Positions 1 to 51,862 of a stretch of 52,455 nt of DNA are shown in pieces. The DNA comes from Macrostomum lignano (taxonomy: Eukaryota): contig NIVC01004265.1 of the NCBI GenBank assembly GCA_002269645.1, positions 1 through 52,455 on the forward strand, read 5' to 3'. A program made the position numbers and the translations under genes. Numbering within the stretch: position 1 is the first letter of the stretch; each line of letters begins with the position of its first letter. The notes beneath the pieces are model-generated. The model was not told where the DNA came from, ran no database searches, and was given only the letters and a program-made list of their open reading frames with translations.

Positions 1-2293
<2,293 letters not shown>

Positions 2294-8282: not shown

Positions 8283-9230
8283 TCAGGAAAGACAGCCGGT
8301 TTCGAATGCTGAGGCTGCGGCGGCGTCTCCAGCGGCGGCAACGGTGGCGGCGGCGGTGGCGCAGGCGGCCTCGAGGCGCCAGTCGTGCTCGCTGAGCAGC
8401 TCCCGGCAGGCGTCCCGGTCGGCCAGGCCTAGCCGGAACAGCTGCTCGACCTTCAGGTAGCGGATGGCCGCCTCCGAGTCCCAGCGGTGCAGGCTGAGCG
8501 CCGCGTGGCTCTCCTCCTCCGTGACGCCGAACACCTGCTCGGTGACGCTGCGGACCAAGTCCATGGGGGTCCGGCCGGGGCCGTAGGTCCTTTGCTCCGG
8601 CTTCAGCGGCGGCGTGGATTCCGCCCCGTCCACGGTGGACTCCGCCGGCGACGAGACCGACGGGAATAGCAGCAGCTGGCGTCGGCGCTTCGACCGGGGC
8701 GGTAGCACCCAGAAGAGGTCCTCGGAGATCTGGCGGCCGCCGCGCAGGATCGGGTGGATGCGCGGCCGACTGAGGGACGCGGCCTCTGCTGCGGATATTG
8801 GTGCTGACGTAGCTGGACTCATTGCTGCTGCTCTTCGCATTATCGGCGGCGGCGGCAGCGGCGGCGGAGATGGCGCCACCGGCGAGGTTGTCGGCGAAGA
8901 GGCTGCCGAGCGCAGCAGCGGCGAGTCGAACTCGGCTAGCGGGGCGCCAAACGCGGCCAAGGACGTGCCGAGGCTGGACAGGGAGGAGCCGAGGGAGAGG
9001 CGGCTGCTGCCGGCGCTGCGGGGCGACGCCGGCAATGACAGACAACGTGCACCTCCATCGCTGCCACCGCCGCCGCCGCCGCTAGCGTCGCTGCTGCCTC
9101 TGACTAGTAGACAAGGAGTAGGTGAAGACGGCAAGGCAGCAGACGTCCCCGGACAGCGGCCGGCTGCTGTGCCAGATGATGCGGCTGCTTCAGCATCCGG
9201 GCTGGTCGGCTGTGAATCCCGATTGCCCAT
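8283..9230 (-). CDS. TNK2: ACK1/TNK2-like C-terminal region (Pro/Ser-rich, Mig6-homology segment, C-terminal UBA); no kinase domain found
   Basis: The 315-aa ORF ends ...VTEQVFGVTEEESHAALSLHRWDSEAAIRYLKVEQLFRLGLADRDACRELLSEHDWRLEAA, recognisable as the ACK-family C-terminus. RIHPILRGGRQISEDLFWVLP resembles the ACK1/Mig6 segment [20 protein letters not shown]. The true 5' structure is uncertain (acceptors at 9249 and 9296). Confidence 0.8.
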   Translation of the reverse strand: MGNRDSQPTSPDAEAAASSGTAAGRCPGTSAALPSSPTPCLLVRGSSDASGGGGGGSDGGARCLSLPASPRSAGSSRLSLGSSLSSLGTSLAAFGAPLAEFDSPLLRSAASSPTTSPVAPSPPPLPPPPIMRRAAAMSPATSAPISAAEAASLSRPRIHPILRGGRQISEDLFWVLPPRSKRRRQLLLFPSVSSPAESTVDGAESTPPLKPEQRTYGPGRTPMDLVRSVTEQVFGVTEEESHAALSLHRWDSEAAIRYLKVEQLFRLGLADRDACRELLSEHDWRLEAACATAAATVAAAGDAAAASAFETGCLS

Positions 9231-9359
9231 GCCGCTGCCCGGCTGCCGCCTGAGGGAAGATGAGATACGGCACGATCAGTTCCGGGTTCAGGTATCCTAG
9301 AAGTTTGTCGCGTGTACTTGACTATCCCCGCCTCTGCTTATCATTTTTGTTAGATTTTG

Positions 9360-28800: not shown

Positions 28801-31800
28801 AGACACACAACAGCCGCACAATGTCTATCCCATCAAGACACACAACAGCCGCACAAAGACTATCCCATCAAGACACACAACAGCCGCACAATGACTATCC
28901 TATCAAGACACACAACAGCCGCACAATGACTAGCCCAACTATTCGCTACTCACCGCTGCAGCACATCAGGTGGGCCCGCAGCTGCTCCGGCCGACCCAGC
29001 TCGGCCAGTCCCAGCCGGTGCAGTCGGCCAGGCTGCGGCAGGAACACCCACAGGAGGCCGCCGCCAACGTTGGATCTGGTAGCTCCGGACAGCAGCGAGC
29101 TGACCGTGCTGAGGCCGAGTCCGGCCACTGTCCGGTGGCGGAAGAACTGGCAAGAGTGGCCGTACAGAAACGACTCGTTGCTAATAAATTTGTGCCGCGA
29201 TTTCCGGTTCCAGTTGCCAAGCGCGTTCGGACTGGGAAATCTGGGCAGCAGGACCTCGGGATTCGCCAGCGATGCAGCTGCGGAGAATCCAAATTATGGG
29301 GCGCTGGCTTTTTTGGAATTGGCAACAATATGGTAGATTGATAATATACTCATTTTTCTTAACTACAAAACTTAAAACAGCAATGATTAATCAATTTAAC
29401 TAGAAATTAATTGTCAAATGAACCGGTAGAATGTCTTCTGGGATAGGAAAAAAGCAGTCCAACAGAGGATCAAGGATGGGACAGAAAGCAGCCCAACAAA
29501 AGATCAAGGATGGAGCAGAAAGCAGCCCTACAAAATATCAAGGATGGGACAGGCAGCAGCCCAACAAAGGATCAAGGATGGGACAGGCAGCAGCCCAACA
29601 AAGGATCAAGGATGGGACAGAAACCAGCCCAACAAAGGATCAAGGATGGGACGGAAAGCAGCCCAGCAAAGGATCAAGGATGGGACAGAAACCAGCCCAA
29701 CAAAGGATCAAGGATGGGACAGACAGCGGCTCATCGTGTCGCACTCACCGCTCATGCTGACCAGATCAGCGAGCTGAGGAGACTCCAGATTAGCGGAGTC
29801 CAGCTTCACTTTGGTGGCGCTGGCATTCAGCACGCTCAGCGACTTGATGCTGACCTCCTTGTCGTCGACTTCGGTCACTCGGTACAGCGCCCGGTCTCCC
29901 GAGTTGCTGTTCTCAGTGTAGCGAAGCCAGTGACCCCGCTGCAGACTGCTTGAGAAGTTTAGCGCCTGATAATAAAACAAAATTATTTTGGTACAGCCAC
30001 ACATTACAGGTGAGACAGGTAGCCACACACTGGGATACAACAGGTGAGACAGGTAGCTATGCACTGGGATACAACAGGTGAGACAGGTAGCCACACACTG
30101 GGATTCAACAGGTGAGACAGGTAGCTATGCACTGGGATTCAACAGGTGAGACAGTTAGCCACACACTGGGATACAACAGGTGAGACAGGTAGCCACACAC
30201 TGGGATACAACAGTTGAGACAGGTAGCCACACACTGGGATTCAACAGGTGAGACAGGTAGCCACACACTGGGATACAACAGGTGTCTCTCACCGGAAAAT
30301 TCTCGGCCCTAACGTGCAGCGCCGCCATCGCCTTCCTGTTGAATACGAGCGACCAGCCGCGCCTCGGCACCAGCAGCCTGTTCAGCGGCACCCCGCTGTC
30401 CAGAACCTCCAGCAGGTCGCACGGGCCGCCAGCCTGCCTGGCATTCTCCTCCGTGAATGGCACCGCAAACAGCCGGCGCTGATGCTGGGAGCCGGCGGCC
30501 GCCAGCTCGCTGGGCGTCAGCAGGCGCAGCTGAACTTTGTGCCTTTGCTGCGACTCGCCGTAGCCGCTGACCACCACCTCCACCGTGTCGTGGCCCTTCA
30601 GACTCTTGTCCGCCTCCGCCATCTCAGACACCTGGCCGGAAGCGGCTGCCCGGGCAGCGGCCGCACCGTGCAGTGGCGCCAGCACCCGGATGCACACGAA
30701 GCGCTGGCCGTCTTTCCGGCTGGCGTTCACGACCAGCTCCCGCTCAGCTTTGTCGTCTTCATCCGCGTCGCTGTTCGCCTCGTCTTCCTGCTCTTTCTGT
30801 TCCCCTTTGCCGCCGCCGCCCTTCTTCTTGAATGTCAGGGCGGCCGCTTTGCCACCGCCGCCTTTGCCTTGAAACTGGGGCGCCCGCTTCTCCTCAATCG
30901 AGCCGAGCATCTCCAGCAGCGACTGCCAGGATGACTCGGACTCGCTCTGTGCCGATGCGGAATCTCCGCTGGCGGCCCTAGTAACCAGGTGGCAGCGCAC
31001 CGAGCCGCTGCTGATAACTCGAATCTGAGTCGGCTCCGAGGTGCGTAGCTCGATCATGAGCAGGCCGGAGAGCACGCCGGAGATGCCTCGGTTGCCGCCG
31101 CGGAGCCCAACCGACTGCACGTGGCAGGGCAGCTCGAGCTGCGGCCACACGCTGGCCAGCTGGTAGCGCACCGAGTCGAACGGCTCCCGCTCCTGGCCGC
31201 TGTCTTCGCTGCCGACGGCACCGGCCACAGCTGCCGAGGTCTCCGCCGCTGCGGGCCTCCAGGCGGCCGAGTCCACCAGCTGGACGATCTCCCCGGGCGA
31301 GTGCATCCCGACGCAGGCGAAGAAGCCTCCGGCGGGCGGTTCGACTGGCTCGCTGGACACCTCGACGAAATCGCCGACGCCGCGGCGATCAAGCGAGAAG
31401 ATGCAGCGCAGGCGGCCGGACACCGGCTTGAGTTGGCAGCGCACCTGACAGCCTGGCAGGGAGGACTCGGCTGAGAACGGCTCCAGCCTGCGGGTTGACT
31501 GGCCGCTGCTCAGGAAGAGGCTGCCAGGTTGAGCAAGGTAAAGAATTAGAATTCATAAAATTGAATGTCTCACTGAGTTGGAAAGTACGAATTGAGGCAG
31601 AAAATAAGGGAGAAAGACGCGACAACGGAGCAGGACGGCAAGGTGAAGTGGGTTTCGGGTGAGGGGTTTCGGGTGAGGCAGGACTGTGGTGGGTGTCAGG
31701 TGAGGCAGGATTGGAGTGGTTGTCAGGTGAGGCAGGATTGGGGTGGGTGTAAGGGTGAGGCAGGATTGGGGTGTGTGTAAGGGTGAGACAGGATTGGGGT

Positions 31801-34800
31801 GGGTGTCAGGTGAGACAGGATTAGGGTGGGTGTCAGGTGAGGCAGGATTGGAGTGGGTGTCAGGTGAGGCAGGATTGGGGTGGGTGTAAGGGTGAGGCAG
31901 GATTGGGGTGTGTGTAAGGGTGAGGCAGGATTGGGGTGTGTGTAAGGGTGAGGCAGGATTGGGGTGTGTGTAAGGGTGAGGCAGGATTGGGGTGTGTGTA
32001 AGGGTGAGGCAGGATTGGGGTGTGTGTAAGGGTGAGGCAGGATTGGAGTGGGTGTAAGGGTGAGGCAGGATTGGGGTGTGTGTAAGGGTGAGGCAGGATT
32101 GGGTGGTCAAGCCACACTGTTATCTTGTTCATTTGCTCAATAAAAACAGTATCTTTACTTTCTGTTTTTTTTCAGACAGAAAACGGATAAACGCTTAAAA
32201 AATGAAATTTAGTTGGACTAGCTGACTTACCCTCCATCGTCGCCATGGTAACCAATAGAACCAGCCCGCCAGCCCGGCTGCGAAGTTGTGTGATAGCCGA
32301 ATGGGACGAGGCCGATGCTGATTGTGCCCTCGGCTCCGCGGGATACGATTTCTGGTTTGTCATTTGTCAGTGTGTGTGTTGTTTTACTTAAGCAATCAAA
32401 ACAGCAGTAGACAAATTCTCATTTGAATGCTCACTGATAGTAAAGGTGTCGCTGCCTCCAGTAAGAGGACTCTGGCCAATCAGAAGGCCAACAGGCAACT
32501 GACTGCTTCTATCCCCCACGCAACTGTAGGCTAGTAGGCCCGCGTCCTGCCACAGGTAGCTGTTGGACTTGGCAGAGTAGTTGTAGCGGGGCATCTGCTC
32601 TGCTGATGACTGGGCGTCGGACAGTGATAAGTCTTCCGGCAGCTGGAAACCAATCGGGTGAGGCAGGATTGGGGTGGGTGTTGGGTGAGGTAGGATTGGG
32701 GTGGGTGTCGTGTGAGGCAGGATTGGGGTGGGTATTTGGAAAGGCAGGATTGGGGTGGGTTTTGGGTGAGGTAAGATTGGGGTGAGTGTCGGGAGAGGCA
32801 GGATTGGGGTGGATGTCGGGAGAGGCAGGATTGGGGTGGATGTCGGGAGAGGCAGGATCGGGGTGGGTGTCGTATGAGGCAGGATTGGGGTGGGTATTTG
32901 GAAAGGCAGGATTGGGGTGAGTATCGGGAGAGGCAGGATTGGGGTGGGTATTTGGAAAGGCAGGATTGGGGTGAGTGTCGGGTGAGGCAGGATTGGGGTG
33001 AGTGTCGGGAGAGGCAGGATTGGGTGGGTATTTGGAAAGGCAGGATTGGGGCGGGTGTCGGGTGAGGCAGGATTGGAGTGAGTGTCGGTCGAGGCAGGAT
33101 TGGAGTGGGTGTCAGGTGAGGCAGGATTGGGGTGGATGTCGGGAGAGGCAGGATTGGGGTGGATGTCGGGAGAGGCAGGATCAGGGTGGGTGTCGTGTGA
33201 GGCAGGATTGGGGTGGGTATTTGGAAAGGCAGGATTGGGGCGGGTGTCGTGTGAGGCAGGATTGGGGTGAGTGTCGGGTGAGGCAGGATTGGGGCGGGTG
33301 TCGTGTGAGGCAGGATTGGGGTGGGTATTTGGAAAGGCAGGATTGGGGTGGGTGTCGGGTGAGGCAGGATTGGAGTGAGTGTCGGTCGAGGCAGGATTGG
33401 GGTGAGCGTGGGGCCGTCAAGTAGAGGCAGCTGGGTCTTGCGTGGCTATGTAATAGTTGAATCTTGTACACCCAATCCGCTTACATTTGCCGGAGACAAT
33501 CTGAAGCTGATGTCAACAGAATAGTCAAGCGATTGTGGCTTCGACTTAAACTCGAGATCTATAAGTTTACAGCGATGTATTTCTATCAGTAGCAAGTAGA
33601 AATATTGTGAGCAAATTTCAAATCTGCAACCTACCCTTTTCTAGAACGTTAACTTCCGGATAGACTTGAATTAGGCCAGAAGTTGAGGTGCTGAAGACGA
33701 AAGTGGGGATAGACAAGTTTTGCATACAGCTCTGTTGCACCGATGTTTTCACTATTCGATCATAAACAAGGCCAAATTCTCACTCCTTCAGGCAGACGAT
33801 GAGCTCATCCTGAGCAATCAGCTGGTTCCGGCAGAAGGTGACCTCGGGCTTGGAAGCCGATTGCAGCGACAGCCGAGGACACAGCTCCACTGCCGGGCCC
33901 TGGAAATTATCAACTGGACAGTGTATTTTCATGGCGCAGTTTCGCTTTTCTAGCTTTCATCTTCTATGGATTTGATCTCAAAAAGCATTGGGTTTGGCCC
34001 TGAGCTTAGATATATAAATATGGAGGTCTGCGGGCACCCCGGCACAACAACAGTAGTAATAATAATGGGCAGATGTGCAACCGACAGCTCAGCCGCAGTA
34101 ATTGCGCGGCATCTGAAGGCTGCGTACGGCTGTTCAGTCCAAGGACTGGGGGTCGCCACACACCCTCAATTACCCCAGCTAATGCTGGCACCCATTTTAC
34201 AGCTGGGTGAACTGAAGCAATGCAGAGTTTAAGTGTTCCAACGTGGGTCGAGAATCGAACCCCCGACCTTACAGTCGTGAGTCCGACGCTCTGACCACTG
34301 GGCTACAACCCCCTCTTGGGCTCCATAAATTTGGAGAGTCAAATCCTCTTAAACGGCTAGCTGAGGCTGATTTTCTCCTACCTGATCGTCCAGTCGAAGC
34401 CGCCGCCTGCTCAAAGCCCGACGCAGGTCGCTGCCGCCGTCGCCGCCGGTGGACAAGTTGATGGAGCCGGGCAGCGCCCTGTTGGGGTGCACACAGGCGT
34501 GCAGCGCCCAGGCGGCGGCCACGCAGTCGGCGCAGACTCCGCAGGTGGCGCAGGCCCGCCGGACGGCCGGCTCGCACAGACAGCGGGCGACGCCGCCGAT
34601 GCCCGAGTCGATCCGATTGAAGCGGCAGGCCGGGCCGGCCCGGGCGCAGTTGCCGCACAGGACGCAGACGCTGGGGGCGTGGCCGGCCTCGGGCTGGCGG
34701 GGTCCCAGCTGTGCCGGCAGGTCAGCGACCGATTCTCTGAGATCCCGAAAAAATTGAGAGTTGGATTAAGTGGATTTTGAATAACAGAGGTTGATGGATT

Positions 34801-37952: not shown

Positions 37953-40900
37953 GCAACAACAACAGCAGCAACAACAACAACAGCAACAACAACAGCAACA
38001 ACCACAACAGCAACAACAGCAGCAGCAACAACAACAACAACAACAACAGCAACAACAACAGCAGCAACAACAACAACAGCAACAACCACAACAGCAACAA
38101 CAACAACAGCAACAACCACAACAACAGCAGCAACAACAACAACAGCAACAACAACAGCAACAACCACAACAGCAACAACAGCAGCAACAACAGCAGCAAC
38201 AACAACAACAACAACAACAACAACAGCAACAACAACAACAGCAACAACCACAACAGCAACAACAACAACAGCAACAACCACAACAGCAACAAGGCGACAG
38301 TACAGTTCAGAAAAGGCGGTGCCAGATCAGGCACAGAAGCTTATGGATTCAATATGGCACAGAAGATGAGGGACTCGATAAGGCAGAGAAGTTGAGAGAC
38401 TCAATTAGGTATTCAATAGATGAGATAAAGCATTTGGGAGGCCATAAAATGAAACACGCAGGCTAACCGGGTTCGCCGCTCTCCTCCTTCTCGCCATCCG
38501 CAGAGGACTGAACCTGGACACCGAGACAGCCCTGTCTCAGCAGCAGGGCGTCCAGCGCATCGGTGAACAGGTGCAGCGCCGACCACAGCAGCTGCCTGGT
38601 GGACGCCCGCTGCGCCGACGACATTTTGCCAGAGGCAGCGGCCACAGGCAGCCAAGCCGTGAGGTGCAGCTCTCCGTTCCTGCCGTCTGCGCCAGCTCCA
38701 TCCTCGCCGCCGCTTTTAGTCACGTGAGCAACGACAATCTCGACGCCCCAGAGGCTGCGAACAAAGCCGGAGGCTGAGCAGCGGCACAGCTGGCCGAGCC
38801 GGCTGGTCAGGCCGAACAGGGCGGGCAGGGCGCGCTCAACCGGCCGGACAATGCCTCGGTAGACTCGGTAGGCAGCTGGCTCGCTACCGGCTGGCAGCTG
38901 GGCGTGGGTGAACAGCGGCCAGTCCAGGGCTTTCCGGCGGCCGGCAGCGCAGTACAGATTCGTGTAGAACAGGCGCTCGTCTTCGGCGCTGCGACGCAGA
39001 GGCGCCAGAGGGACCAGGGCGCCGGAGTCGGCCAGGATGCGGCGCAGGTGAGGCTGGGATTGGGGATGAAGGGGGGGTCAGCGCTGAAGCCTTCAAATTA
39101 TTGTAAAGGTTACTGATTTTTGCTGATTGACTGTTTCAATAGCTCCTGACTCATTCTGTATCAGCTCCTGACTCATTGTGTATCAGCTCCTGACTCATTG
39201 TGTATCAGCTCCTGACTCATTGTGTATCAGCTCCTGACTCATTGTGTATCAGCTCCTGACTCATTGTGTATCAGCTCCTGACTCATTGTGTATCAGCTCC
39301 TGACTCATTGTGTATCAGCTCCAGACTCATTGTGTATCAGCTCCTGACTCATTGTGTATCAGCTCCAGACTCACTCTGTCACAGCCCCTGACTCATTGTG
39401 TATCAGCTCCTGACTCATTCTGTATCAGCTCCTGACTCACTCTGTCACAGCTCCTGACTCATTGTGTATCAGCTCCTGACTCATTGTGTATCAGCTCCAG
39501 ACTCACTCTGTCACAGCCCCTGACTCATTGTGTATCAGCTCCTGACTCATTCTGTATCAGCTCCTGACTCATTGTGTATCAGCTCCTGACTCATTGTGTC
39601 ACAGCTCCTGACTCACTCTGTATCAGCTCCTGACTCATTGTGTCACAGCTCCTGACTCATTCATTATCAGCTCCCGACTTATTCTGAAAAGTCATAATTT
39701 TTTTATTTCACCCGAGTGCTGGCTATGAATATATAGATATAGATATAACAAATCGCTCTATTTTAGATTACCGATATGTAGTGCATGTTCTATTATCAAG
39801 GTAAAATTTTAATTAGAATACGAATTGATTCGATAAAAAGATCGACCATTTTAAAGCAACATTCTCAACAAAATTGTCGATCCAAAACAGTTCAACGCTG
39901 ACCTCTTCGGCTGAGGTCACTCCAGCGGCTTTAAGTGCCTGGGCCAGGGTGGCTTCGCTCCACACACCAGCGTCCGGCTCGAGTCCGGGTAGCAACGACC
40001 CAGCAACCAGGGGCGGATCGAAGGGCAGCGATTCGAGCAGGTCGAAGAACCACGGCAGGTCGGTGACGATTAGGCTCAGGTGGCGGAGAAATATTAGCGA
40101 GCCCTGCGGAGTTCAGGTAGATGGGGGTGGCGGGGTAGATTTCGTACATAACAGCCACTGACACTATCACAGTCAGTGACTCATTTTTAAATGTCGCCTG
40201 ACTCACTCTATATCAGCTCCTGACTCACTCTGTCACAGCTCCTGACTCACTCTGTCACAGCTCCTGACTCACTTTGTAGCAGCTCCTGACTCACTCTGTA
40301 GCAGCTCCTGACTCACTCTGTCACAGCTCCTGACTCACTCTGTCACAGCTCCTGACTCACTTTGTAGCAGCTCCTGACTCACTCTGTAGCAGCTCCTGAC
40401 TCACTCTGTCACAGCTCCTGACTCACTCTGTCACAGCTCCTGACTCACTTTGTCACAGCTTCTGACTCACTCTGTCACAGCTCCTGACTCACTCTGTCAC
40501 AGCTCCTGACTCACTTTGTCACAGCTCCTGACTCATTCTGTCACAGCTCCTGACTCACTCTGTCACAGCTCCTGACTCACTCTGTCACAGCTCCTGACTT
40601 ATTCTGTCACAGCTCCTGACTCACTCTATCACAGCTCCTGACTCACTCTGTCACAGCTCCTGACTCACTCTGTCACAGCTCCTGACTCACTCTGTCACAG
40701 CTCCTGACTCATTCTGTCACAGCTCCTAACTCACTCTGTCACAGCTCCTGACTCATTCTGTCACAGCTCCTAACTCACTCTGTCACAGCTCCTGACTCAT
40801 TCTGTCACAGCTCCTAACTCACCCTCTCATGCAGCCACTGCAGCGCCTCCACCAGCTGCCGCCTGCCGAACTTCTCGTCCGCCTCTTTCAGGCAGTCCAA

Positions 40901-43900
40901 TGCGCAGATTCGGCCCCGCCCGCTGCCCTCAGTGGCCGCCTTCAGCGCCTCCTTGACGTGGCGAATTCGCCACAGCCGGTCGGGCAGCAGCGCCTCCACT
41001 GCCGCCTGCGACGTGGCCGCCAGAGCCACCCGGAGCTCGGGCAGCTGGTCGGTGCCAAACAGCTCGAGATCGTCGCCGATTCGCGTCTCCAGGTAGGCCT
41101 GGATGCGCTCGGCCGTGCCGGACAGCTCCGACCAGCGCAGCTGGCGCAGAAACTCGCCGCCGCCTCCGCCGCCGCTTTCAGCCAGTCGTTTCTCCTCGAC
41201 CTCCAGGCTGGCCGTCGCCTGATCGCGGACCCGCTTCAGCTCGGCCGCGACGCCTTCTCGAATGCGAGCCGCTGTCGAACTGGCGGCGGACGACGACGAT
41301 GACATTCGATGGCAGAGGACGCGGAACGGCGGCGTGTGCAGCGGCGTCCCGACAGACGGGTCGCTTTCAACAGCAGCAGAAGACGTCGCCTCGGCCCCGG
41401 CTGAGACCTTGGACTTCGCCAAGTCGGGCACCGGGGGCCGCCACCGACGCTGGAGTAGACGGGGCTGGCCGAATCCGGCAGCAGGTAGAAGCCCACGTCG
41501 TCCGCCTTGCCTTTGGCGCAGCTGGCGTAGCCGAACACGCCTTCGTGCACCGTCTGCGACACCTTGCCCTTCTTTTGGACTGAGCCGCCGCGGGACAGCG
41601 CCGAGGACTTCACGATGAACTGGTGCACCGTGGCCTTGTTTAGCACGATGTTCACCATGTTTGATTCGCCGCTGAGGGCGCCTTTGCGCACCTCGATTGA
41701 TACAACGAAGTTGTCCTTGTCAGAGACGAACGTGTCCGTCTTCCAGGTGGCCGGGATGGACATGACTCCGTCATCCTTGACGCAGCTCAGCTTGCTGGAG
41801 AAGTTTTCGGATGGCTTTGCAGATTTTTTATTTATTGTCAAGGCCAAACCGTATCGGGATGTCAGGTCGGCGCTGACAGATCGGGGTGTCAGATCTACTG
41901 GAGAATAGCGGCTGTCAGCACTGACAGATCGGGGTGTCAGATCCACTGGAGAATAGCGGCTGTCAGCACTGACAGATCGGGGTGTCAGGCCCGCTGAAGT
42001 TAGGGGTGTCAGGCCCGCTGAAGTTAGGGGTGTCAGGCCCGCTGAAGTTAGGGGTGTCAGGCCCGCTGAAGTTAGGGGTGTCAGGCCCGCTGAAGTTAGG
42101 GGTGTCAGTCCCGCTGAAGTTAGGGGTGTCAGGCCCGCTGAAGTTAGGGGTGTCAGTCCCGCTGAAGTTAGGGATGTCAGGCCCGCTGAAGTTAGGGGTG
42201 TCAGGCCCGCTGAAGTACCGGAGGCTCCGCACTCACAATTCTTTTCCAGAGTCGCTGAACTCCAATTTTACAATCGCTCGCTCGTAGAGGTCGGAGAAGC
42301 TGTGAAATTTCTGAGAAAACTCGAACCACTTCGGATCCATTCGAATCAGGCCGACCGTGCACTCTTTGCAGTCGGCAACAACCACTGAGAACACGGAGCT
42401 GGGCTTGCGGATGTCGAGCTCATTGTTGCTAACGAACATACTGTTGCACTCTTCCATTGGGAGGCTGCGGAGTTTTTTGAATAGAGTTTGTGATTGAATG
42501 CAGCTCTGAACCGTTGACCCACAGGACTTAGATCTTGACCCACTTGACCCACGGATCCTTGAGCTTGACCCACGGATCCTAGAGCCTGACCCAAGGATCC
42601 TTGAGCTTGACCCACGGATCCTTGAGCTGGACCCAGCTGACCCACGAATCCTTGAGCTTGACCCACGGATCCTAGAGCTTGACCCACGGATCTTAGAGCT
42701 TGACCCACAGATCCTAGAGCTTGACCCACGGATCCTAGAGCTTGACCCACTTGACCCACGGATCCTTGAGCTTGACCCACTTGACCCATGGATCCTTGAG
42801 CTTGACCCACGGATCCTAGAGCTTGACCCACGGATCCTTGAGCTTGACCCACTTGACCCATGGATCCTTGAGCTTGACCCACGGATCCTAGAGCTTGACC
42901 CACGGATCCTAGAGCTTGACCCACAGATCCTAGAGCTCGACCCACGGATCCTAGAGCTTGACCCACAGATCCTAGAGCTTGACCCACGGATCCTAAAGCA
43001 TGATCCATGGATCCTAGAGCTTGACCCACTTGACCCACGGATCCTAGAGCTTGACCCACGGATCCTAGAGCTTGACCCACTTGACCCACGGATCCTTGAG
43101 CCTGACCCACGGATCCTAATGTATGACCCATGGAGCTTAAAAAGTTAAGAAAAGAACTTGGAGCTTGACTTAAACAGTTAAAGTAGGTCTTTGATCCATT
43201 TGTCTACTCACATCCATTTTTCCACTTGCTTCACTCCGACATGATGATACTCGGGGCCCTTCACCATCTCGATCTTGTCGTCGGCCTCGACATCGGCGCC
43301 ACCTTTTCGGTCCACCTTTGGCTTGTCGGGAATGTTGGGAATGCTCGCGTCTGAAGCCGTGGCGAGCTTGCGTCTGGTTGCCGGGTCTGGCTGCTTCAGC
43401 ACAGGGTTCGCCTGGGGACAAGTTTGAGTTGGTGCTATCCATTTGCCTAGTAGTGCTCATGCCTAACTTGTCTACTCTCAGTCTACCCTACCTACTCTCA
43501 GTCTACCCTACCTACCCTCAGTCTACCCTACCTACTCTCAGTCTACCCTACCTACTCTCAGTCTTCCCTACCTACCCTCAGTCTACCCTATCTACTCTCA
43601 GTCTATCCTACCTACTCCCAGTCTATCTTATGTACTCTCAGTCTACCCTACCTACTCTCAGTCTACCCTACCTACTCTCAGTCTACCCTACCTACTCTCA
43701 GTGTACCCTACCTACTCTCAGTGTACCCTACCTACTCTCAGTCTACCCTACCTACTCTCAGTCTACCCTACCTACTCTCAGTCTACCCTACCTACTCTCA
43801 GTCTACCCTACCTACTCTCAGTCTACCCTACCTACTCTCAGTCTTCCCTACCTACCCTCAGTCTACCCTACCTACTCTCAGTCTATCCTACCTACTCCCA

Positions 43901-46489
43901 GTCTATCTTATGTACTCTCAGTCTACCCTACCTACTCTCAGTCTACCCTACCTACTCTCAGTCTACCCTACCTACTCTCAGTGTACCCTACCTACTCTCA
44001 GTCTACCCTACCTACTCTCAGTGCACCCTACCTACTCTCAGTCTACCCTACCTACTCTCAGTCTACCCTACCTACTCCCAGTCTATCTTATGTACTCTCA
44101 GTCTACCCTACCTACTCTCAGTCTACCCTACCTACTTTCAGTCTACCCTACCTACTCTCAGTGTACCCTACCTACTCTCAGTGTACCCTACCTACTCTCA
44201 GTCTACCCTACCTACTCTCAGTCTACCCTACCTACTCTCAGTCTACCCTACCTACTCTCAGTCTACCCTACCTACTCTCAGTCTACCCTACCTACTCTCA
44301 GTGCACCCTACCTACTCTCAGTCTGCACTTAAGTCCCAAACGCCTCACCTTAGACAGGTAGGTCACCAGCGTCTCGGCTATGTGCCCAACAGCTCTATCG
44401 AAGTCGTTGAGCACCACAATCACAACCTGGTCCGGCTGGCTTGGAAAGTACTGCAGGTTGTAGGCCTGTAGATAGATTGTGGCAATGGAGTTTTTGTCTT
44501 GATGAGTGGGGAAATGGGCAGCCCGGGCCATGAAGTGTTTATTGTTAGCGTCTATGGTTGAGTGTTTATGGCTTAGTGTTTATCATTTTGCGTTTATGAC
44601 TGAATGTTTATGGTTGAATATTTATGGTTGAATGTTTATGGTTGAATGTTTATGGTTGGATGTTTATAGTTGGATGTTTATGGTTGGATGTTTATGGTTG
44701 GATGTTTATGGTTGGATATTTATGGTTGAATGTTTATGGTTGGATGTTTATGGTTGAATGTTTATGGTTGAATGTTTATTGTTGGATGTTTACGGTTGAA
44801 TGTTTACGGTTGGATGTTTATGGTTGAATGTTTATGGTTGGATGTTTATGGTTGAATGTTTATGGTTGGATGTTTATGGTTGAATGTTTATGGTTGAATG
44901 TTTATGGTTGAATGTTTATGGTTGAATGTTTATGGTTGAATGTTTATGGTTGAATGTTTATGGTTGAATGTTTATGGTTGAATGTTTATGGTTGAATGTT
45001 TATGGTTGAATGTTTATGGTTGAATGTTTATGGTTGAATGTTTATGGTTGAATGTTTATGGTTGAATGTTTATGGTTGAATGTTTATGGTTGAATGTTTA
45101 TGGTTGAATGTTTATGGTTGAATGTTTATGGTTGAATGTTTATGGTTGAATGTTTATGGTTGAATGTTTATGGTTGAATGTTTATGGTTAGATATTTATC
45201 TTTTTGTGTTTATGGCAAAGTTTTCATGAATTAAAGCTTCAGTACAATGCTATTAACTGAGGGCTTATTGACAGCAGTCAATGATTGACTGTTTTTTTCA
45301 CATTTTTGCGCGAGTACTTATTGGTGCATTTTTGTCGTTTAGTGTTTACAGAAATGGTTTACTGAATGAAATCTCGCTTCTTTTGAAATATTTTAACAAT
45401 TGATTATATATCCATTCTGTCTAATTTACAGTTTACTTGCGTGTGTGCTGCTGAGCACTCATAGACAGAGCAATATAAAAGTCAAGAGAAACTCACGGAC
45501 AAGCACAGCTCGGTCGCCACCACGTGGGCGTCGCCAACCTTCATGAATTTGTCGTCCACCGCCGCGCCCCGACCGCCGGCCGCCTTCAGCTTGCCCTCCT
45601 TCACCGCAGACATCGCGCTGAACTGAACTTCCGGCAGCGACACGAACAGCAGGCTGCTGACCGCCAGCTCCTCGGCCAGCTCTGCGAGGATAAATAATTG
45701 ACCTTCTTTGTCACCTGCGTAAGGCCTAGCCAGGGTAGATAGATAGGGTAGATAGGGTAGATAGGATAGATAGGGTAGATAGGATAGATAGGGTAGATAG
45801 GGTAGTTAGGGTAGATTGGGTAGTTAGGGTAGATTGGATAGATAGGGTAGATAGGGTAAATAGGGCAGATAGTGTTGTTAAGGTAGATAGGAAAGATATT
45901 GTAGATAAGATAGATAAGGCATATAGGGTAGATAGCGTAGTAGACGATATAAATAGGATATACAGGGTAGATTGGATAGATAGGGTAGATACGGCAGTGA
46001 CAAGATAAGTAGAAATGGGAGGTAGATAGATTTGGAGGGCAAGAGAGTGGTAGATAGGCTAATTTTGCCCACCCACCTTTGTTCTTCTTCAAGTCATCAT
46101 CGTCCATTTTATCGGCAATGTCCGTCTTGACCACGGAAGCGCTGGAGAAAGTCCGGAACAGGTGCGCTATGGAATTCTTGGTGATGGCGGGGCAGTGCTG
46201 CAGGTCGATGTTCATCTGGACTTTCTGTTGGTGCAGTGAAGGTGTGTCGTTTTACTACACTCTTCTACTAATAGTAGCACCATATATAGACGGTATTTTT
46301 TAAACAGGATACAAACCTTAATCTTCTCCGGATCCTTTCTCTCTTTTTCAAAGGCTTCGCACAGCCAACGGATGCCCTGGTCGGTGATGTAGGCCTCGCC
46401 GCGAAATGACAGTTGGAAAAATTGCGCTGAATCCTTCTTGGCCTGGGTTCGGGTTAGAGCAGGGTGGTTAGCTAGTAGTAGTATTGACA

Positions 46490-46583
<94 letters not shown>

Positions 46584-46649
46584 TAGTAGTAGTAGTAGTA
46601 GCAGCAGCAGTAGTAGTAGTAGTAGTAGTAGTAGCAGTAGTAGTATCAA

Positions 46650-46705
<56 letters not shown>

Positions 46706-46736
46706 TCAATAGTAGTAGTAGCAGTAGTAGTATCAA

Positions 46737-46811
<75 letters not shown>

Positions 46812-46812
46812 C

Positions 46813-46852
<40 letters not shown>

Positions 46853-47448
46853 CATTCTACACTCACCAGCTCCTTGGCGAAGCTCTTCAACGTCATGTCC
46901 GTCCACAACGATGTCCACAGCGGCAGGGTGTTGTCGAATTCCCCCGGCCCATCCGAGCAGCAGAGAATCTGGCTGTCGGAGCGCTGCTTCAACAAACTGT
47001 CGAACTTGCCCTTTTGTGTTGATTAAAACTTGGATTATTATGCTTGACTGAAGCTTGAAATATCCCAACCCTTGGTAATTTTAACCGAAAAACTTAAACG
47101 GCAACATATACTACTCACATCGAGTGCGTTTCTCTCCAGTTGAAGGCGGCTGTAGGCATTTCGAATAGCCTGCGAATTTTTCGTGCTCAACTGGCTCTGC
47201 GGACCGGCGGCGACCTCGTCGCGACGTCGTCGATTAGGACGCACCAAGTTGTTGGAGAACAGATTCTTCTGCTGCTCCTCCTCATCCGAGTCCGGAGTCT
47301 CCGAGCCAGTTTCTGTCTCAGTTTTCTCTTCCTCTGAGAAGTGACTAGTGGTCTGCTGTTGCAGCATCTGCTCCTGCTGCACCTGCTGCTGAATGGGAAA
47401 AAGATTCGGCGGCGCGGCTTTCCTGGCTGTCTGCTTTGTTCGAGCCAT
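13810..47448 (-). CDS. Giant ROCO-family protein (~3,740 aa, 35 exons): H3-tail mimic, LRR, degenerate Roc-COR, Cys-rich motif, SPRY, LRRs, Roc GTPase, COR, two TIR, CaaX
   Basis: Hand-spliced exons, all GT-AG and phase-compatible: 47119-47448, 46867-47010, 46317-46442, 46077-46224, 45497-45681, 44349-44465, 43212-43411, 42237-42464, 40823-41794, 39903-40103, 38468-39053, 34382-34736, 33784-33899, 33635-33690, 33485-33582, 32435-32642, 32231-32351, 30293-31520, 29749-29965, 28954-29277, 27865-27977, 27151-27783, 26171-26500, 25216-25722, 23023-23403, 22149-22583, 20904-21065, 20606-20802, 20017-20505, 19308-19815, 17367-17917, 17096-17128, 16627-17005, 14430-14707, 13810-14073. Three 1-nt deletions must be corrected (~41435, ~34700, ~17741). 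A few acceptor choices (e.g. 44465, 41794) are best guesses. Confidence 0.85.
14082..14402. repeat. 28-bp intronic minisatellite (TGAGCTGAGATCCCGGTGTGAGATTGCA)n
   Basis: Fills almost the whole last intron of the ROCO gene. Confidence 0.95.
14755..14870. repeat. Short ~20-bp degenerate tandem repeat
   Basis: GAGAGTCTGTGAGGGGCCA-like units. Confidence 0.75.
15300..16620. repeat. 20-bp intronic minisatellite (CACTGAGTCAGCAGTGAAGG)n
   Basis: Directly visible; two interleaved variants. Confidence 0.97.
17235..17340. repeat. 30-bp tandem repeat, 3-4 copies
   Basis: CACCCATCAAAGCTGAGTGTACCTGTCAAT. Confidence 0.85.
17367..20120 (-). CDS. ROCO gene exons encoding two tandem TIR (TIR_2-like) domains plus a coiled/basic segment
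   Basis: KDVFISYCWANS..LQEKGIHCWLD..SLFEDISDGLRQCSVVLAFASNEYQRSANCMMEF, preceded by a more degenerate copy (DCKVLLVFLSKAFADDEACRGMF). Confidence 0.88.
17975..19265. repeat. 10-bp intronic minisatellite (CAACACCATC/CAACACCACC)n splitting the second TIR domain
   Basis: Directly visible. Confidence 0.97.
19850..20005. repeat. 52-bp tandem repeat, about 3 copies, filling an intron
   Basis: GAGACTGGAGCACTGGTCTTATGCCTGAGACAGGGAAACTGGGCTTGTGTCC. Confidence 0.9.
20017..22583 (-). CDS. ROCO gene exons encoding the Roc C-terminus and COR domain (4 exons)
   Basis: AVNFLNDIGSIQYF..KVVINPKWIVDVM; EAFDLTYP..VPCLLP; YQFEYLPAGLFNRAQVRL; IRDVIDGLIKETFQGV..CPEC. Confidence 0.93.
21110..22040. repeat. 46-bp intronic minisatellite
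   Basis: GGGTGCGTGTACATTGGGGCTGAGAGCGACTGTTGATGATTGGTCA. Confidence 0.96.
22735..22990. repeat. ~21-bp intronic minisatellite (TAAGACGTCGATAGGGTCGAT)n
   Basis: Directly visible. Confidence 0.9.
23023..23403 (-). CDS. ROCO gene exon encoding the intact Roc GTPase core
   Basis: G1 GLGGVGKTS, G2 ITDGID, G3 WDFAGQ, HQFFLTHRAVYLL, G4 VGTHSD: canonical Roc motifs. Confidence 0.96.
23450..25150. repeat. GT-rich 14/15-bp intronic minisatellite (GGATTGGGGTTGTT / GCATTGGGGTTGTT)n
   Basis: Directly visible; source of the QQPQSNNPN and GLLDWGCWI ORFs. Confidence 0.97.
25216..27300 (-). CDS. ROCO gene exons encoding the LRR array preceding Roc
   Basis: LxxLxL repeats, e.g. LRHLRTLRLSQLPLRTLP and LTNLKTLQLNYQAIRRIP, and the Roc-proximal LRTPPLEVVQRGSAALLSYL. 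Confidence 0.93.
25870..25985. repeat. 32-bp tandem repeat, about 3.5 copies
   Basis: AAAACCCGATGTGAATCTCTCATAAGTAAGGC. Confidence 0.85.
28015..28930. repeat. 35-bp intronic minisatellite
   Basis: GACTATCCCATCAAGACACACAACAGCCGCACAAT. Confidence 0.97.
29440..29725. repeat. 34-bp intronic minisatellite
   Basis: CAAAGGATCAAGGATGGGACAGAAACCAGCCCAA. Confidence 0.92.
30005..30285. repeat. 34-bp intronic minisatellite
   Basis: CAACAGGTGAGACAGGTAGCCACACACTGGGATA. Confidence 0.93.
31250..32642 (-). CDS. ROCO gene exons encoding a SPRY domain (SPRYD3/RanBP9-like)
   Basis: Spliced sequence VGLLIGQSPL..FTIKIVSRGAEGTISIGLVPFGYHTTSQPGWRAGSIGYHGDDGGLF..GFFACVGMHSPGEIVQL. Confidence 0.88.
31660..32105. 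repeat. G-rich ~27-bp intronic minisatellite (GTGAGGCAGGATTGGGGTGGGTGT..)
   Basis: Directly visible; same family as 32655-33410. Confidence 0.94.
32655..33410. repeat. G-rich ~27-bp intronic minisatellite, same family as 31660-32105
   Basis: Shared core GAGGCAGGATTGGGGTG. Confidence 0.94.
34045..34313 (-). mobile_element. tRNA-derived SINE with a CORE/Meta-like central domain and (ATT)n-type tail
   Basis: Minus strand: A box TAGCCCAGTGG, B box GGTTCGATTC, then CACTTAAACTC..TGCTTCAGTTCACCCAGCTGTAAAATGGG (resembles the CORE-SINE consensus), ending ATTATTATTACTACT. tRNA stems are imperfect and no TSD is evident. Confidence 0.62.
34790..37700. repeat. ~102/106-bp satellite built of four diverged ~26-bp monomers, with higher-order periodicity
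   Basis: About 28 units; identical variant patterns recur 823 bp apart. Confidence 0.96.
37755..38292. repeat. (CAA/CAG/CAC)n trinucleotide microsatellite
   Basis: Directly visible; intronic. Confidence 0.97.
39140..39680. repeat. 22-bp intronic minisatellite (CAGCTCCTGACTCATTGTGTAT)n
   Basis: Directly visible; same family as 40195-40815. Confidence 0.95.
40195..40815. repeat. 22-bp intronic minisatellite (CAGCTCCTGACTCACTCTGTCA)n
   Basis: Directly visible; contains GTGAGT on the gene strand. Confidence 0.96.
41865..42215. repeat. 24-bp intronic minisatellite (GGGGTGTCAGGCCCGCTGAAGTTA)n plus a related longer unit
   Basis: Directly visible. Confidence 0.93.
42520..43135. repeat. 21-bp intronic minisatellite (GAGCTTGACCCACGGATCCTA)n
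   Basis: Directly visible. Confidence 0.95.
43470..44330. repeat. 20-bp intronic minisatellite (CAGTCTACCCTACCTACTCT)n
   Basis: Directly visible. Confidence 0.97.
44560..45190. repeat. 14-bp intronic minisatellite (TTTATGGTTGAATG)n
   Basis: Directly visible. Confidence 0.96.
45735..46000. repeat. 9-bp degenerate repeat (GATAGGGTA)n
   Basis: Directly visible; intronic. Confidence 0.88.
46475..46852. repeat. (AGT)n microsatellite
   Basis: Directly visible; intronic. Confidence 0.97.
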
Positions 47449-49732
47449 GGCGCTGCTGCAGACGCTGGTACCGCTAGCTTTTTGTGCTTGTGCTCGCTTG
47501 TTTAGGTCAAAATCGTTTCTTTGCAAAGCATAAAATATGTGAGATGGGTTTTGTAAAACATCATGTAATATATGGATAATGTAATATATTCTATATGCAT
47601 TTATGTGTAGTGTCTCTAACATGGCAAATATTAGTCCAATATTTAACAAAAAGATAACTTGAGTTGTCATAAGCAAAAATATATATTTGAATTAATTTTT
47701 CTCATTATTATCTCTACATGTAAAAATCGAAATATGGATATATTAGAAATTTTTTTAACATTTCATATTTTGCCGTTTATAACTACTAAAAATTAACTTA
47801 CATGTAACTTATTAGCAATGTTTAAGTAAAACTTATAGTTGAATTAGAAAAACTAACAGTTGAAACGATAATACATGTATTAGTTGTGACTAAAGTCTAA
47901 TGCACATATAGTGCATACATTTGGTTATTGTGACCTAGTAACTTTCTAGTGACTATTTCTAAACAGTAAAATGTTCCTGTTTGAAATAAGTAGGCCTATT
48001 TATTATCATGCAGTCATGTTAGCTACCGAATGTATTACAAACGCAAAAAGTTTTGTAAAACCCTGAAATTGCTTCAATAGTTGCAGATTTAGTTATATAG
48101 AACAAAACGGAGGATATTCGTTCCATCGAACCGGCGTTATGCTTAATCAGAATCAGAGAAGTATTTAAGGATTGAATGATTTTAGAAACGGACAAAAATA
48201 TGGAGCTAATCGATTGGCAAACTGCTGGTCAAAGCAAACTGTAGAATAAAAAGCACAGTTTGAAGTCTTGTTATCACACAAAGCTCATTATGATATGCAG
48301 AAAACTAGCAGTCAGAATCCAGTATTTCCATTATATGATGTTTGCTGCTTGTTTTGCTTGAGTTTAAAAACGTGTGCACAGTAAACATCCCCATGTTAAA
48401 TGTATGTTAAATATACGTTGTGTTTATAGTAACTGGCTATTGAAATATTTTTAAAAAAGCTTAAGTAAATATATTTTACTTTTATGTGTTTTTATCAACT
48501 TAAATGATAAGTTCTACATTGGCTGTTAGCATATTTTAAATATTTTGTTGTACCTTTTGCCATTTACGAAATAAAATTTATCCGACGTATAGCTTTCTCC
48601 AGACTTCAAAAAATGTTTGGCTTATTTACGCTCTCTGAAAGACTTGTGTACGGCTTTTCGCTTTCATTTTAAAAATAAGTTTCAAGTGCTAATTCGCACT
48701 GTTGTACTTCATGTTGTTTAGCCTTTGAAGTCTTTCAATCGTAATTTTTTATTCACACCTATTAGTCACTGGAACGGATTTTATTTTTTAAAAATTCTCA
48801 TGGCTACGCCTTCAGGATGCCCAAATCAGATTTGTGACTATGACTTTTAACTAATATCAAATATTGTCTTGTTTTTTACTGCTTATGCGAGAGAATTTGG
48901 TACATTTATCTTGCGTGTAATAAATTCTGCATGTACAGTTATGTACTGTAACATTGTGGAGCATTAAATACATTCAGTAGCTGCTTCATGTGTATATGTT
49001 TAGTCGGGCCGTCTATAAGAAGCTGCCAAATCGATAAAATTAAATTATACGAATGCAACTACAAAATATCTACTACAATGAACTTTTATTTGATGCTCTG
49101 TATTACTGTATTTGTAGACAATAAGGAAAATGCACAATAACAAAAATGCATGTACATGTAATCTATAAAATATACTCAGTTCATGCATATGCTTTCCTTG
49201 AGTATGCATGAATATTTACCCGAAATCGAGTTGACCATCTGCGTAGTTTTTAAGTGCAAGCTTGCTTTCATTGTGGGCGAAGTGTCTACGAACACTGCAG
49301 TTGCAAAAAGTTATATAATTGTATTTTTTCGTCGATATTCTTAACTCGTAGCGCCCATCAGATTAATTTGAAAATCAGTTCATGCTTGCACATAAAATTA
49401 CCAAACATGGGTTGGCGAGCGTAGTTCTATAGAATTTCTATCTTCCTAATGCGTTTGTGCATTCGTACGACAAACTTGGGTACACCCGTGTCGTGCTGTT
49501 CAAATAAATTTTTACGCATACACCTCAATGCAAGGAATCAGCTACGACGAATGCCCGATTGGACCATGGTGCAGCTGTGTGTACTAAACTGATAATTTGT
49601 TGGAAGCGGGCGGTCGTGGCGGGAAGTCTCGTACACATGGAACCGCCAAGTAAAGCAAGATAAAAATGAGCTCGATAAAACCTGACTGGCTTCGAGCAGC
49701 CAGTTGAGCATACCGAATTCTGAGCAGGAAAG

Positions 49733-50078
49733 ATGGACAGCGCGTGCTCGGTAACGGACTGGCCGATCTACCGCTTCTTGGATGCCCACGGCGGCGGGCA
49801 ATTAGTGACAGCCTATGAGGCCGGCGGTGCGAGCGCGGCGCGTCGGCTGCTGCTCAACTCGGTTGCTCCAAAGTTTCTCTACAACGACGGTCGAGGGCGC
49901 CTGTTCAGCGGCCGCAGGTTGCTTGCTGGCGCTCGACACTATCTGGCACAGAGAGGAGCTGCAGGCGAAGCTGATGACACCTGCAGCCTACCGACTGCTC
50001 AGACAGTGTCGCCAGCTGCGCCAACTTCGGGTTCAGCATCCACCGTTGAAGTTGAGCTTTTCTACGACTCAAAAGTGA

Positions 50079-50110
<32 letters not shown>

Positions 50111-50113
50111 TAG

Positions 50114-50146
<33 letters not shown>

Positions 50147-50149
50147 TAG

Positions 50150-50194
<45 letters not shown>

Positions 50195-51862
50195 GACCAA
50201 AACCTACCCTCAAATCGTCTCCCAGCTAACCAGCCGCAGCACCAGCTGCTCAGCTGAACCAAAGTCAAAGGCTTTGCCGCCGATTCCGTCGCTCCCATCA
50301 CCGACGCCGATCCTGCTGAAGTTCGATCCTCGCCTCGGCCACGCAGCCTCAGTCTACACTGAATCAACGCGCCATCTCACCTGCTGGAGCATCGAACACC
50401 GAGGCGCATTCGGCGAGACGCTGCTCCACCTGTGCCTCGTCTGCGGCTCCTCTGAGACGCACCGAGCCCTGGCCAGGCTGATGCTGGACTGCTTCCCTTG
50501 CATGGCGTTCGACATCTTCATCGGCTTCGAGTACTTTGGTGAGGGAAGCTGCCCCGACAGCTCAATAAGTGGATGCAGACGCAGAAAGGCAGAAAAGATA
50601 GTGAAAATTCTTTATTTGAAGGTGAAAAGCAGTTTTCCACTAGTGCACTAAGTACTTTCTCATTTTAGCTTGCAGTTCTATTCAAGTTGTATACGAGCTG
50701 CCCCCACCGATATTCCCTTCCGGTTGCAGGCCAGTCTGCGCTGCACATGGCTGTCATTAACAGGGACTTAGAGCTCGCCCGCCTGCTGCTGCAGTGCGGC
50801 GTCAACATTCATCAGCGCGCGGTTGGGGACTTCTTCCTGCCGGAGGATCTGCGCTGCGATGACCGGGGAGCCGCGGATACAGCTGCTGAGAGGACCAACT
50901 ATTCCGGTGGGGATTTTACCCGATGTCCGAGATCATGACCGTATCTATGACTGAGATTATGACCTTATCTATGATTGAAATGATGACCTTATCTAAGACC
51001 GAGATTATGACCTTATCTATGACTGAGATTATATACCTTATCTATGACTGAGATCATGACCTTATCTATGACCGAGATCATGATCTAATCTATGACTGAG
51101 ATTATGACCTATCTATGACGGAGATTATTCACTTTATCTATGACTGAGATGACCTTGTCTATAACTGAGATTATCACCTTATCTATGACTGAGGTTATGA
51201 CTGTATCTAAGACTGAGATTATGACCTTTTTTAAGACCGAGATTATGACCTTATCTATGAGTGGCATCATGACCTTATCTATGACTGGATCATTACCTTA
51301 TCTATGACTTAGATCATGACTTATCTATGACTGAGATCATGAACTTATCTATTACTGAGGTTATGACCTTATCTAAGACCGAGATCATGACCTTATCTAT
51401 GAGTGGCATCATGACCTTATCTATGACTGAGATTATGACCTTATCAAGACTGAGATCATGACCATGTTCGTGACTAGACCATGTATTGAAGCCTATCAAT
51501 CAATGACTGAGCTAGTAAATTTATTCATCTTAAAGCAACCAACCTACTGACTATATTAATGACCACATTATGACCCAGCCCAAAAACTTATTTTTATCAA
51601 TGTTTGAAGTTATTTTGTACCGGCTTTATCGCCGACGGAGCCAAGGAGCTCATGAAAAAGATCTAACTGTCAATCTGTGCTCAAAGCAAGAACTCCCAAC
51701 TCTGCAGGCTACTCATACTATGGAGAATATCCTCTATCGTTCGCTGCCAGCACCGGAAACGCAGAACTGTACGAACTGCTGCAGACAGAGGCGCAGATCC
51801 CAATAGACAGGATCTGCTTGGCAATGCTGTGCTGCACATGCTGGTCATTCATAACAAAAACT
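49733..51862 (+). CDS. TRPV-family cation channel (osm-9/ocr/inactive/nanchung type), N-terminal ankyrin region. Exons 49733-50074, 50226-50538, 50730-50906, 51708-51862; the gene continues beyond the window.
   Basis: PIYRFLDAHGGGQLV..FLYNDGRG; RGAFGETLLHLCL; EYFGQSALHMAVIN; RAVGDFFLPED; TNYSGYSYYGEYPLSFAAS; GADPNRQDLLGNAVLHMLVIHN (after a 1-nt deletion at ~51790). Splice phases are compatible. Confidence 0.92.
50080..50195. repeat. (GTCT)n microsatellite in TRPV intron 1
   Basis: Directly visible. Confidence 0.96.
50935..51465. repeat. 24-bp degenerate minisatellite (GAGATTATGACCTTATCTATGACT)n in a TRPV intron
   Basis: Directly visible. Confidence 0.92.

Follow-up and report, generated by a model that had tools for sequence, protein, structure and literature searches.

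Copies of the N-terminal tip of histone H3 have been described on H3TMs such as VRK1, BCL11B, HIVEP1 and PCLAF (Chen et al. 2021, PMC8166343), which begin with iM-small-R-X-K and hold A1, R2 and K4 in the H3 register. Internal histone mimics, among them G9a (ARKT), influenza NS1 (ARSK) and PRMT6 (ARTK), are likewise non-histone proteins that copy an H3 motif, but as 4-residue, non-N-terminal motifs (PMC8166343). ROCO proteins, such as LRRK1/2, DAPK1, MFHAS1 and Dictyostelium Roco/Pats1, have in common an LRR-Roc-COR core with intact G motifs; LRR-Roc-COR proteins have been described as counter-invader systems or candidate immune receptors (PMC8195603, PMC11378527, PMC9334734), the former in bacteria (PMC8195603) and the latter in brown algae (PMC11378527), and ROCO-TIR genes have been noted in Aplysia with no function given (PMC9334734). 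Plant NLR integrated decoys (RRS1-WRKY with RPS4) join an NTPase switch, LRRs and a TIR to a copy of a host target. Here we analysed a 52,455-nucleotide stretch of the flatworm Macrostomum lignano (assembly GCA_002269645.1, contig NIVC01004265.1, positions 1 to 52,455; the whole stretch is called the window), whose minus strand carries a ROCO-TIR gene that starts with an exact copy of the H3 tip. The H3 tip on ROCO-TIR proteins is a real, expressed and recurrent feature, and what is new here is that exact H3 residues 1-8, H3(1-8), open 5 of 55 apparently complete ROCO-TIR genes, which come from three phyla and do not form one clade. The reading we prefer, plausible if somewhat short of probable, is that the tip may serve as bait facing the cytosol, and that the Roc/TIR module may be switched on when this bait is bound or modified.

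Compared with the seven H3TMs tested, which match H3 loosely (PMC8166343), the ROCO-TIR tips copy 8-9 residues exactly (15 of 16 in Mercenaria), and their carrier is no chromatin factor but an LRR-Roc-COR-TIR protein of ~400 kDa with a CaaX end, whose tail was repeatedly gained or lost within one family. None of the five carriers has an intact ARKS motif. Unlike LRRK- and DAPK-type ROCO proteins, the family has no kinase domain, despite database names, and it differs from known ROCO proteins by a tandem TIR effector, a degenerate second COR, the CaaX end and the H3 tip. Its pairing of a Glu-bearing with a Glu-less TIR resembles RPS4/RRS1, whereas its switch is Roc-COR and not NB-ARC, its bait an 8-9-residue peptide and not a domain, and the protein a single animal polypeptide with a putative decoy role. 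No report of an H3 tail on a ROCO or TIR protein was found in the open-access literature, a search that covered few subscription journals and no supplements; the passages of PMC9334734 make no mention of a histone tail, and the MBT-bearing Aplysia gene LOC101848126 named there is our family member P0152.

The gene's 5' end is laid out as follows.

47529 to 47531, minus strand: spliced-leader trans-splice site, seen as loose ends in runs X16 and X19, with an AG acceptor in run X2
47449 to 47528, minus strand: 5' untranslated region, with no further ATG
47419 to 47448, minus strand: copy of the H3 tip, M-ARTKQTARK; no letter change is listed there in any of the four runs compared
47119 to 47418, minus strand: remainder of exon 1, encoding AAPP, a Q-rich, acidic and basic linker and then a predicted helix, up to a phase-0 GT donor
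47011 to 47118, minus strand: intron 1, 108 nucleotides, GT..AG, from probable RNA contigs against a DNA run
46867 to 47010, minus strand: exon 2
46317 to 46442, minus strand: exon 3; two probable RNA runs join it to exon 2

On the minus strand, gcgccATGGCT at 47448 opens MARTKQTARKAAPP in the Macrostomum window, and PDB histone H3 chains align to it as MARTKQTARKST: residues 1-9 are identical and S10 is an alanine, just as a first-pass annotation of the bare sequence had stated. Nine given residues at a fixed start have a chance of ~9e-12, computed from the protein's own composition, and the six frames of the window hold no second H3-tip match of at least 6/9. Likeness to H3 is limited to tail residues 1-9. 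Pfam lists 14 families at E ≤ 1 for the 3,733-residue sister protein (see below), none of them a histone family; the complete exon 1 has no PDB match at E ≤ 10; and a weak single-sequence AlphaFold model of exon 1 (mean pLDDT 65.6, pTM 0.23) gives a coil tip and three separate helices. The protein is therefore not a histone, in agreement with the same annotation, which had found no histone fold.

Four of the 24 listed sequencing runs were compared over 46860-48300, three of them probable RNA runs (type guessed, not on record) and one a DNA run, X2. Intron 1 (47011-47118) is skipped in all three probable RNA runs, which come from three studies, and retained in the DNA run; this 47119/47010 junction, together with the sister gene model, bears out the earlier proposal that exon 1 splices into the ROCO gene. 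Beyond exon 2, the 30 visible letters are those of exon 3 in two of the three probable RNA runs. All three probable RNA contigs end at 47529-47531, and in X16 and X19 a non-genomic end at 47531 matches the published M. lignano spliced leader (PMC8629364), a trans-splicing of this mRNA that the first-pass annotation had missed. The AUG within the leader itself is not in frame and begins an upstream open reading frame of 9 codons; it remains out of frame with a 5-nucleotide insertion allele of the 5' untranslated region present in X19 and X2. In the trans-spliced mRNA, the ATG at 47448, from which translation had been predicted, is the first start codon in frame. Two in-frame ATGs further upstream, at 47670 and 47622, were considered as main starts and rejected because both lie before the trans-splice site, although one low-depth contig does cover 47545-47710. 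At 47529-47531 itself the window reads ATG and X2 reads AAG (an AG acceptor; A>T at 47530); the window letter there equals the spliced-leader end, and the ATG may reflect an assembly altered by RNA-based polishing, or an allele.

The complete gene was traced through a sister copy.

13810 to 47528, minus strand: entire ROCO-TIR gene, ~35 coding exons, 3,733 residues in the annotated sister copy BOX15_Mlig030627g3 (P0121)
17741 to 41437, minus strand: three single-base gaps against P0121, all of them in C runs, near 41435, 34691 and 17741

The best match of the Roc exon is M. lignano BOX15_Mlig030627g5, a model of 1,999 residues that starts at an internal Met. P0121, a member of the same cluster on a different contig, starts with MARTKQTARK and can be followed through the window one exon after another from 47448 to 13813, with 19 differences over the 3,705 residues compared. 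This annotated sister model links the tip to Roc and TIR, as do exons 2-4, which code for an LRR domain that is N-terminal in 80 family rows. All three gaps, which the first-pass annotation had overlooked, break the reading frame; those near 41435 and 34691 precede Roc, and those near 34691 and 17741 roughly bracket the short 1,999-residue model. P0124, which has the window's residue at all five variable sites, reads through the gap at 34691, so an assembly error is likely there; all three gaps are probably such errors, the P0124 evidence concerning that at 34691 only. A true pseudogene in the window was judged less likely than assembly error. The closest paralogue, P0328 (M. lignano BOX15_Mlig008399g1; 2,913 residues), has the same CaaX end, and its model begins inside the degenerate COR region.

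From the N terminus, the protein runs through the H3 tip, a low-complexity linker, LRR, a degenerate COR-like region, a cysteine cluster, a weak SPRY, LRR, Roc, COR and a pair of TIR folds, and it finishes with a basic CaaX motif.

46117 to 46911, minus strand: N-terminal LRR-like domain, family-wide (residues 144-236; profile E 3.8e-17)
38469 to 41150, minus strand: degenerate second COR-like region, approximate limits (HHalign probability 96%, E 2e-9)
31412 to 32444, minus strand: SPRY-like domain, weak here (E 0.034) and clear in subfamily relatives
25306 to 27162, minus strand: second LRR block
23026 to 23385, minus strand: Roc GTPase with intact P-loop and DFAG motif (Roc E 1e-19)
20232 to 22421, minus strand: COR-A (E 6e-24) and COR-B (E 3e-29)
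19500 to 20150, minus strand: first TIR fold, with Met where the second TIR has Glu
17634 to 19478, minus strand: second TIR fold with Glu3266 (17816-17818); Glu in 151 of 155 family rows, the other 4 being gaps
13813 to 13842, minus strand: basic stretch and CaaX-type end (CSVQ)

Roc is followed by COR in Pfam, the GTP-binding motifs are intact (P-loop, DFAG and a G4-like Asp, which P0121 shares with the rest of the family), and no protein kinase domain is among the 14 Pfam families listed for P0121; by its sequence, the protein classes as a ROCO member and not as an LRRK-type kinase or an NLR. With Roc-COR in place of an NB-ARC or NACHT switch, it would work like the NLR class without being a member. 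HHalign comparison of a 14-row family alignment, P0121 included, with the Roc-COR core revealed the degenerate second COR-like region, which suggests that the LRR-Roc-COR unit was duplicated internally long ago in the ROCO-TIR family. For the N-terminal LRR-like domain, FBXL-type LRR look-alikes were found at low TM-score (a lead only), and the ESM Atlas gave nothing beyond such low-scoring look-alikes and unnamed matches below 0.9.

A model of the TIR pair (pLDDT 89.4) superposes on solved TIR domains at Z 14-17 in VIA-align: Hydra TRR-2 at Z 16.8 (root-mean-square deviation 1.9, 123 residues aligned), MyD88 at Z 15.8 (2.3, 129) and SARM1 at Z 14.4 (2.5, 129), and, for the first TIR, RPS4/RRS1 at Z 14.5 (2.5, 137). 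In Foldseek, the TIR matches of the two-TIR model (E ~1e-4) were diluted among Rossmann-like folds, a mixture that VIA-align resolved. TIRs exist with and without the catalytic glutamate (PMC9153377). Glu3266 aligned to a Glu of the Cat1 TIR, in a weak match. At the other end of the question, where the protein resides, CaaX ends are prenylated, and the ROCO-TIR protein is probably prenylated and membrane-anchored. Cys at -4 from the C terminus occurs in all five tail carriers and in 47 of 55 complete family genes, which suggests a prenylated ROCO family; the literature passages covered make no mention of one. The first-pass annotation had missed this CaaX end, which argues against a simple nuclear sink.

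Among 84 long matches, two start with the tail (P0135 of Mercenaria mercenaria and P0141 of Owenia fusiformis), and later searches added P0213 of Ylistrum balloti and P0333 of Mya arenaria; over eight residues, the tip of the flatworm protein thus recurs in clam, scallop and segmented-worm relatives. For counting, 155 family rows were reduced to 80 with a Met start and N-terminal LRR, and these to 55 non-redundant genes; the 75 rows excluded for want of either feature include none with a tail (best score 9). Exact ARTKQTAR stands at residue 2 in five of the 55 (Macrostomum, Owenia, Mercenaria, Mya and Ylistrum); besides the query's sister copy, 4 of 54 carry it, and these four belong to two other phyla. 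With four further genes of the family carrying exact H3(1-8), the motif does not decay freely, an outcome that the first-pass annotation had named as refuting. N-terminus scores are bimodal, with 38 for the carriers and 15 for the next best, so the tail is all or nothing. P0136 (Tubulanus) and P0177 (Capitella) have a weak H3 likeness (15 of 38) and are possibly decayed tails; such degenerate tails were left out of the carrier count. Probing the long proteins with a tail query of 40 residues brought up nothing but the query itself among 382 candidates, an empty result that is uninformative: calibration put genuine tails at 4-11 bits, well under the cut-off used.

Positions 9-10 read KA in Macrostomum, AS in Owenia, QS in Mercenaria, ES in Mya and RS in Ylistrum, and H3's KS in none. 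All five carriers therefore break K9-S10, four by changing K9 and Macrostomum by changing S10, so the conserved signal is the tip and not K9. This bears on several functions offered in the first-pass annotation: K9 enzymes or readers do not hold up as a general target with K9 kept in one carrier of five, and the proposed loss of the K9/S10 switch through S10 applies to Macrostomum but not generally, the other four keeping S10 and changing K9. Sensing of H3-clipping proteases fits poorly as well, because H3 clip sites lie around residues 20-22, outside the copied stretch.

H3 genes are multicopy, and the tails could be neutral leftovers of H3 5' ends that were captured more than once, or could in part arise where annotation fused nearby H3 fragments to these genes, an explanation to which we give little credence. 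Capture would suit the multicopy genes and the Mercenaria tail, which reaches residue 16 with only K9 changed; fusion would suit a Mercenaria model ~600 residues shorter than its Mactra orthologue, an odd Rho fusion in Owenia and the status of four carriers as models. However, the Macrostomum tail lies in a spliced, trans-spliced mRNA, and the Mercenaria carrier and its Mya orthologue, which has another residue at 9, both run from the tail through a proline-rich linker into the common LRR domain. Residues 1-8 are moreover invariant, whereas the sequence behind them differs in all five carriers.

Core identity among the carriers is only 41-74%, and a single carrier clade is rejected (approximately unbiased test, p 3e-18). 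In the tree of complete genes the tail state changes five times, at least three of these changes being forced by strong branches; the Macrostomum branch is long. All five carriers lie inside one 32-row branch (support 90), so the tail may be ancestral with many losses just as it may have been gained repeatedly. Plant integrated decoys show patchy gain and loss. The patchy gain and loss of the tail in the ROCO-TIR family therefore counts for a bait-sensor reading, and as in an integrated decoy a switch and an effector are joined to a host-target copy of patchy distribution. Accessory modules are also swapped in the family, including MBT, SPRY, an extra TIR in Mya and a Rho/Rac-like GTPase in the Owenia model (residues 21-189 of P0141, directly behind the H3 tip), possibly a second bait or a fusion artefact.

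If the tip is a bait, a probably prenylated, membrane-anchored ROCO-TIR signalling protein of ~3,700 residues would present at its N terminus a peptide copied from H3. PHD readers need free A1, R2 and K4, and the initiator Met is removed before Ala (PMC8166343), so the tip would have the free A1-R2-T3-K4 end that PHD/Tudor-type readers need. At the cytosol-facing membrane it would normally meet no H3-tip reader or writer; the trigger could be a protein of a pathogen or transposon that targets H3, or one of the host's nuclear enzymes freed by envelope damage. Binding or modification of the tip would then relieve autoinhibition and change the state of Roc-COR, upon which the TIR pair would assemble and signal, probably by NAD+ cleavage via Glu3266. 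Ribosome-bound H3 carries K9me1/2 and no K4 methylation (PMC4627087), and the broken K9-S10 may spare the bait the K9 methylation that nascent H3 receives.

Alternatively, the tip could be a constitutive docking or modification site for host H3-tip readers and writers (PHD/Tudor, NuRD, WDR5, haspin/survivin), which would tie ROCO-TIR to chromatin or cell-cycle signalling, possibly in trans with MBT paralogues and with no invader involved. M-A-R-T-K at the first in-frame AUG does read as the iM-Z-R-X-K of the published H3TM definition, and H3TM N termini bind PHD/Tudor when methylated and NuRD when not (PMC8166343). A sister subfamily bears the MBT methyl-lysine reader domain, and Mya has one tail-bearing and one MBT-bearing gene. 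Yet chromatin proteins are over-represented among human H3TMs, and the seven that were tested resemble H3 only loosely (PMC8166343), whereas the present protein has a CaaX end; no MBT was found in cis in any of the five carriers, nor was one seen in the M. lignano paralogues retrieved; and scattered presence suits a housekeeping link poorly. We consider docking unlikely on balance. The MBT-repeat subfamily itself extends from Trichoplax to amphioxus (P0131, P0129, P0163, P0184 and others), with a conserved FDGW motif and often lysine-rich N termini.

The tip is not confined to this family. A metagenome scan for ATG, ARTKQTAR and a codon not starting with A, which excludes K9 by design, gave 119 of an estimated 390 loci. 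Of these, 118 were read and contained 120 matches; an H3 fold lay downstream in 55 and not in the other 65, the latter comprising 31 with fewer than 450 readable bases, 15 short frames and 19 non-histone frames of at least 100 residues. Above Pfam cut-offs, these 19 frames starting MARTKQTAR include three VWA proteins (two with U-box), one IBR and one LRR protein, and Roc, COR or TIR in none. The VWA proteins are eukaryotic, with long H3-tail starts and R or Q at 9 (L050:69-2162:+, L051:913-2367:-, L073:54-1895:+); five further frames are an IBR protein (L034:2195-3028:-), an LRR protein (L015:2-1468:-), a weak Agenet/Tudor match (L063:1070-1492:+), a probable zinc-finger protein (L017:2603-3028:-) and a 548-residue K/E-rich protein (L062:3001-4644:+). 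Judged by these sequences, the exact H3(1-8) start is a recurring eukaryotic module and not unique to ROCO-TIR, and because it occurs on unrelated eukaryotic proteins the tip may be generic. As a portable signal and not a sensor, it could serve nuclear import, N-terminal processing or stability, or be released as a fragment that competes in the nucleus, and both the lysine-rich N termini of many tail-less family members and the basic RRRR stretch in exon 1 would suit this. A basic or import signal would not, however, need eight exact residues in five diverged proteins, and intermediates are lacking (38 against at most 15), which makes a generic signal improbable in our view.

Several points weigh against a bait function for the tip. 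No invader protein of these animals that targets the H3 tip has been identified; 50 of the 55 complete genes have no tail, and the core therefore works without it; and the same start occurs on the 19 unrelated open reading frames from the 120 metagenome matches. The K9 change in four carriers would also be expected if K9 were merely free, and the Owenia, Mercenaria, Mya and Ylistrum carriers are gene models only, the Macrostomum tail being read-supported. For the window, the copy is frameshifted as assembled and the observed RNA letters end at exon 3, short of Roc/TIR. For the effector, the case for a catalytic Glu3266 consists of its conservation and one weak alignment (E 0.9), and the best TIR matches include non-enzymatic adaptors such as MyD88. 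We put forward more hesitantly still, as a doubtful though attractive extension, that membrane-anchored ROCO-TIR proteins could be an invertebrate class of immune receptors guarding chromatin by proxy, in which the H3(1-8) tip (elsewhere an MBT reader or Rho GTPase) would have been repeatedly acquired as bait, K9-S10 would be broken so that a host cytoplasmic methyltransferase spares the bait, and the H3(1-8) start would be a portable decoy module also found on eukaryotic E3 ligases and LRR proteins.

Around the gene, the window holds the following further features.

1336 to 1572, minus strand: at the left end, an exon coding for the homeodomain (Pfam E 1e-15) of a homeobox gene
8286 to 9275, minus strand: final exon of a gene that encodes a UBA-like domain and a region rich in Pro/Ser
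49724 to 50651, plus strand: divergent coding exons, ankyrin/TRPV-like by eye, with no Pfam match at E 0.01
Whole window: tandem repeats over ~24.6 kb of 52.5 kb, mostly intronic minisatellites

The five carriers would define the part of the H3 tail that is under selection outside chromatin, namely residues 1-8 and not K9. In practice, a ~400 kDa protein that is not a histone may show up in these animals with pan-H3-tail or H3K4 antibodies, and M. lignano is a laboratory model, so a sharp test of the tip is possible. If the bait reading is true, these genes would represent integrated-decoy sensing in animals, outside the NLR class and with a histone-tail bait, and would point to the existence, in marine invertebrates, of as yet unknown proteins of invaders directed against the H3 tip.

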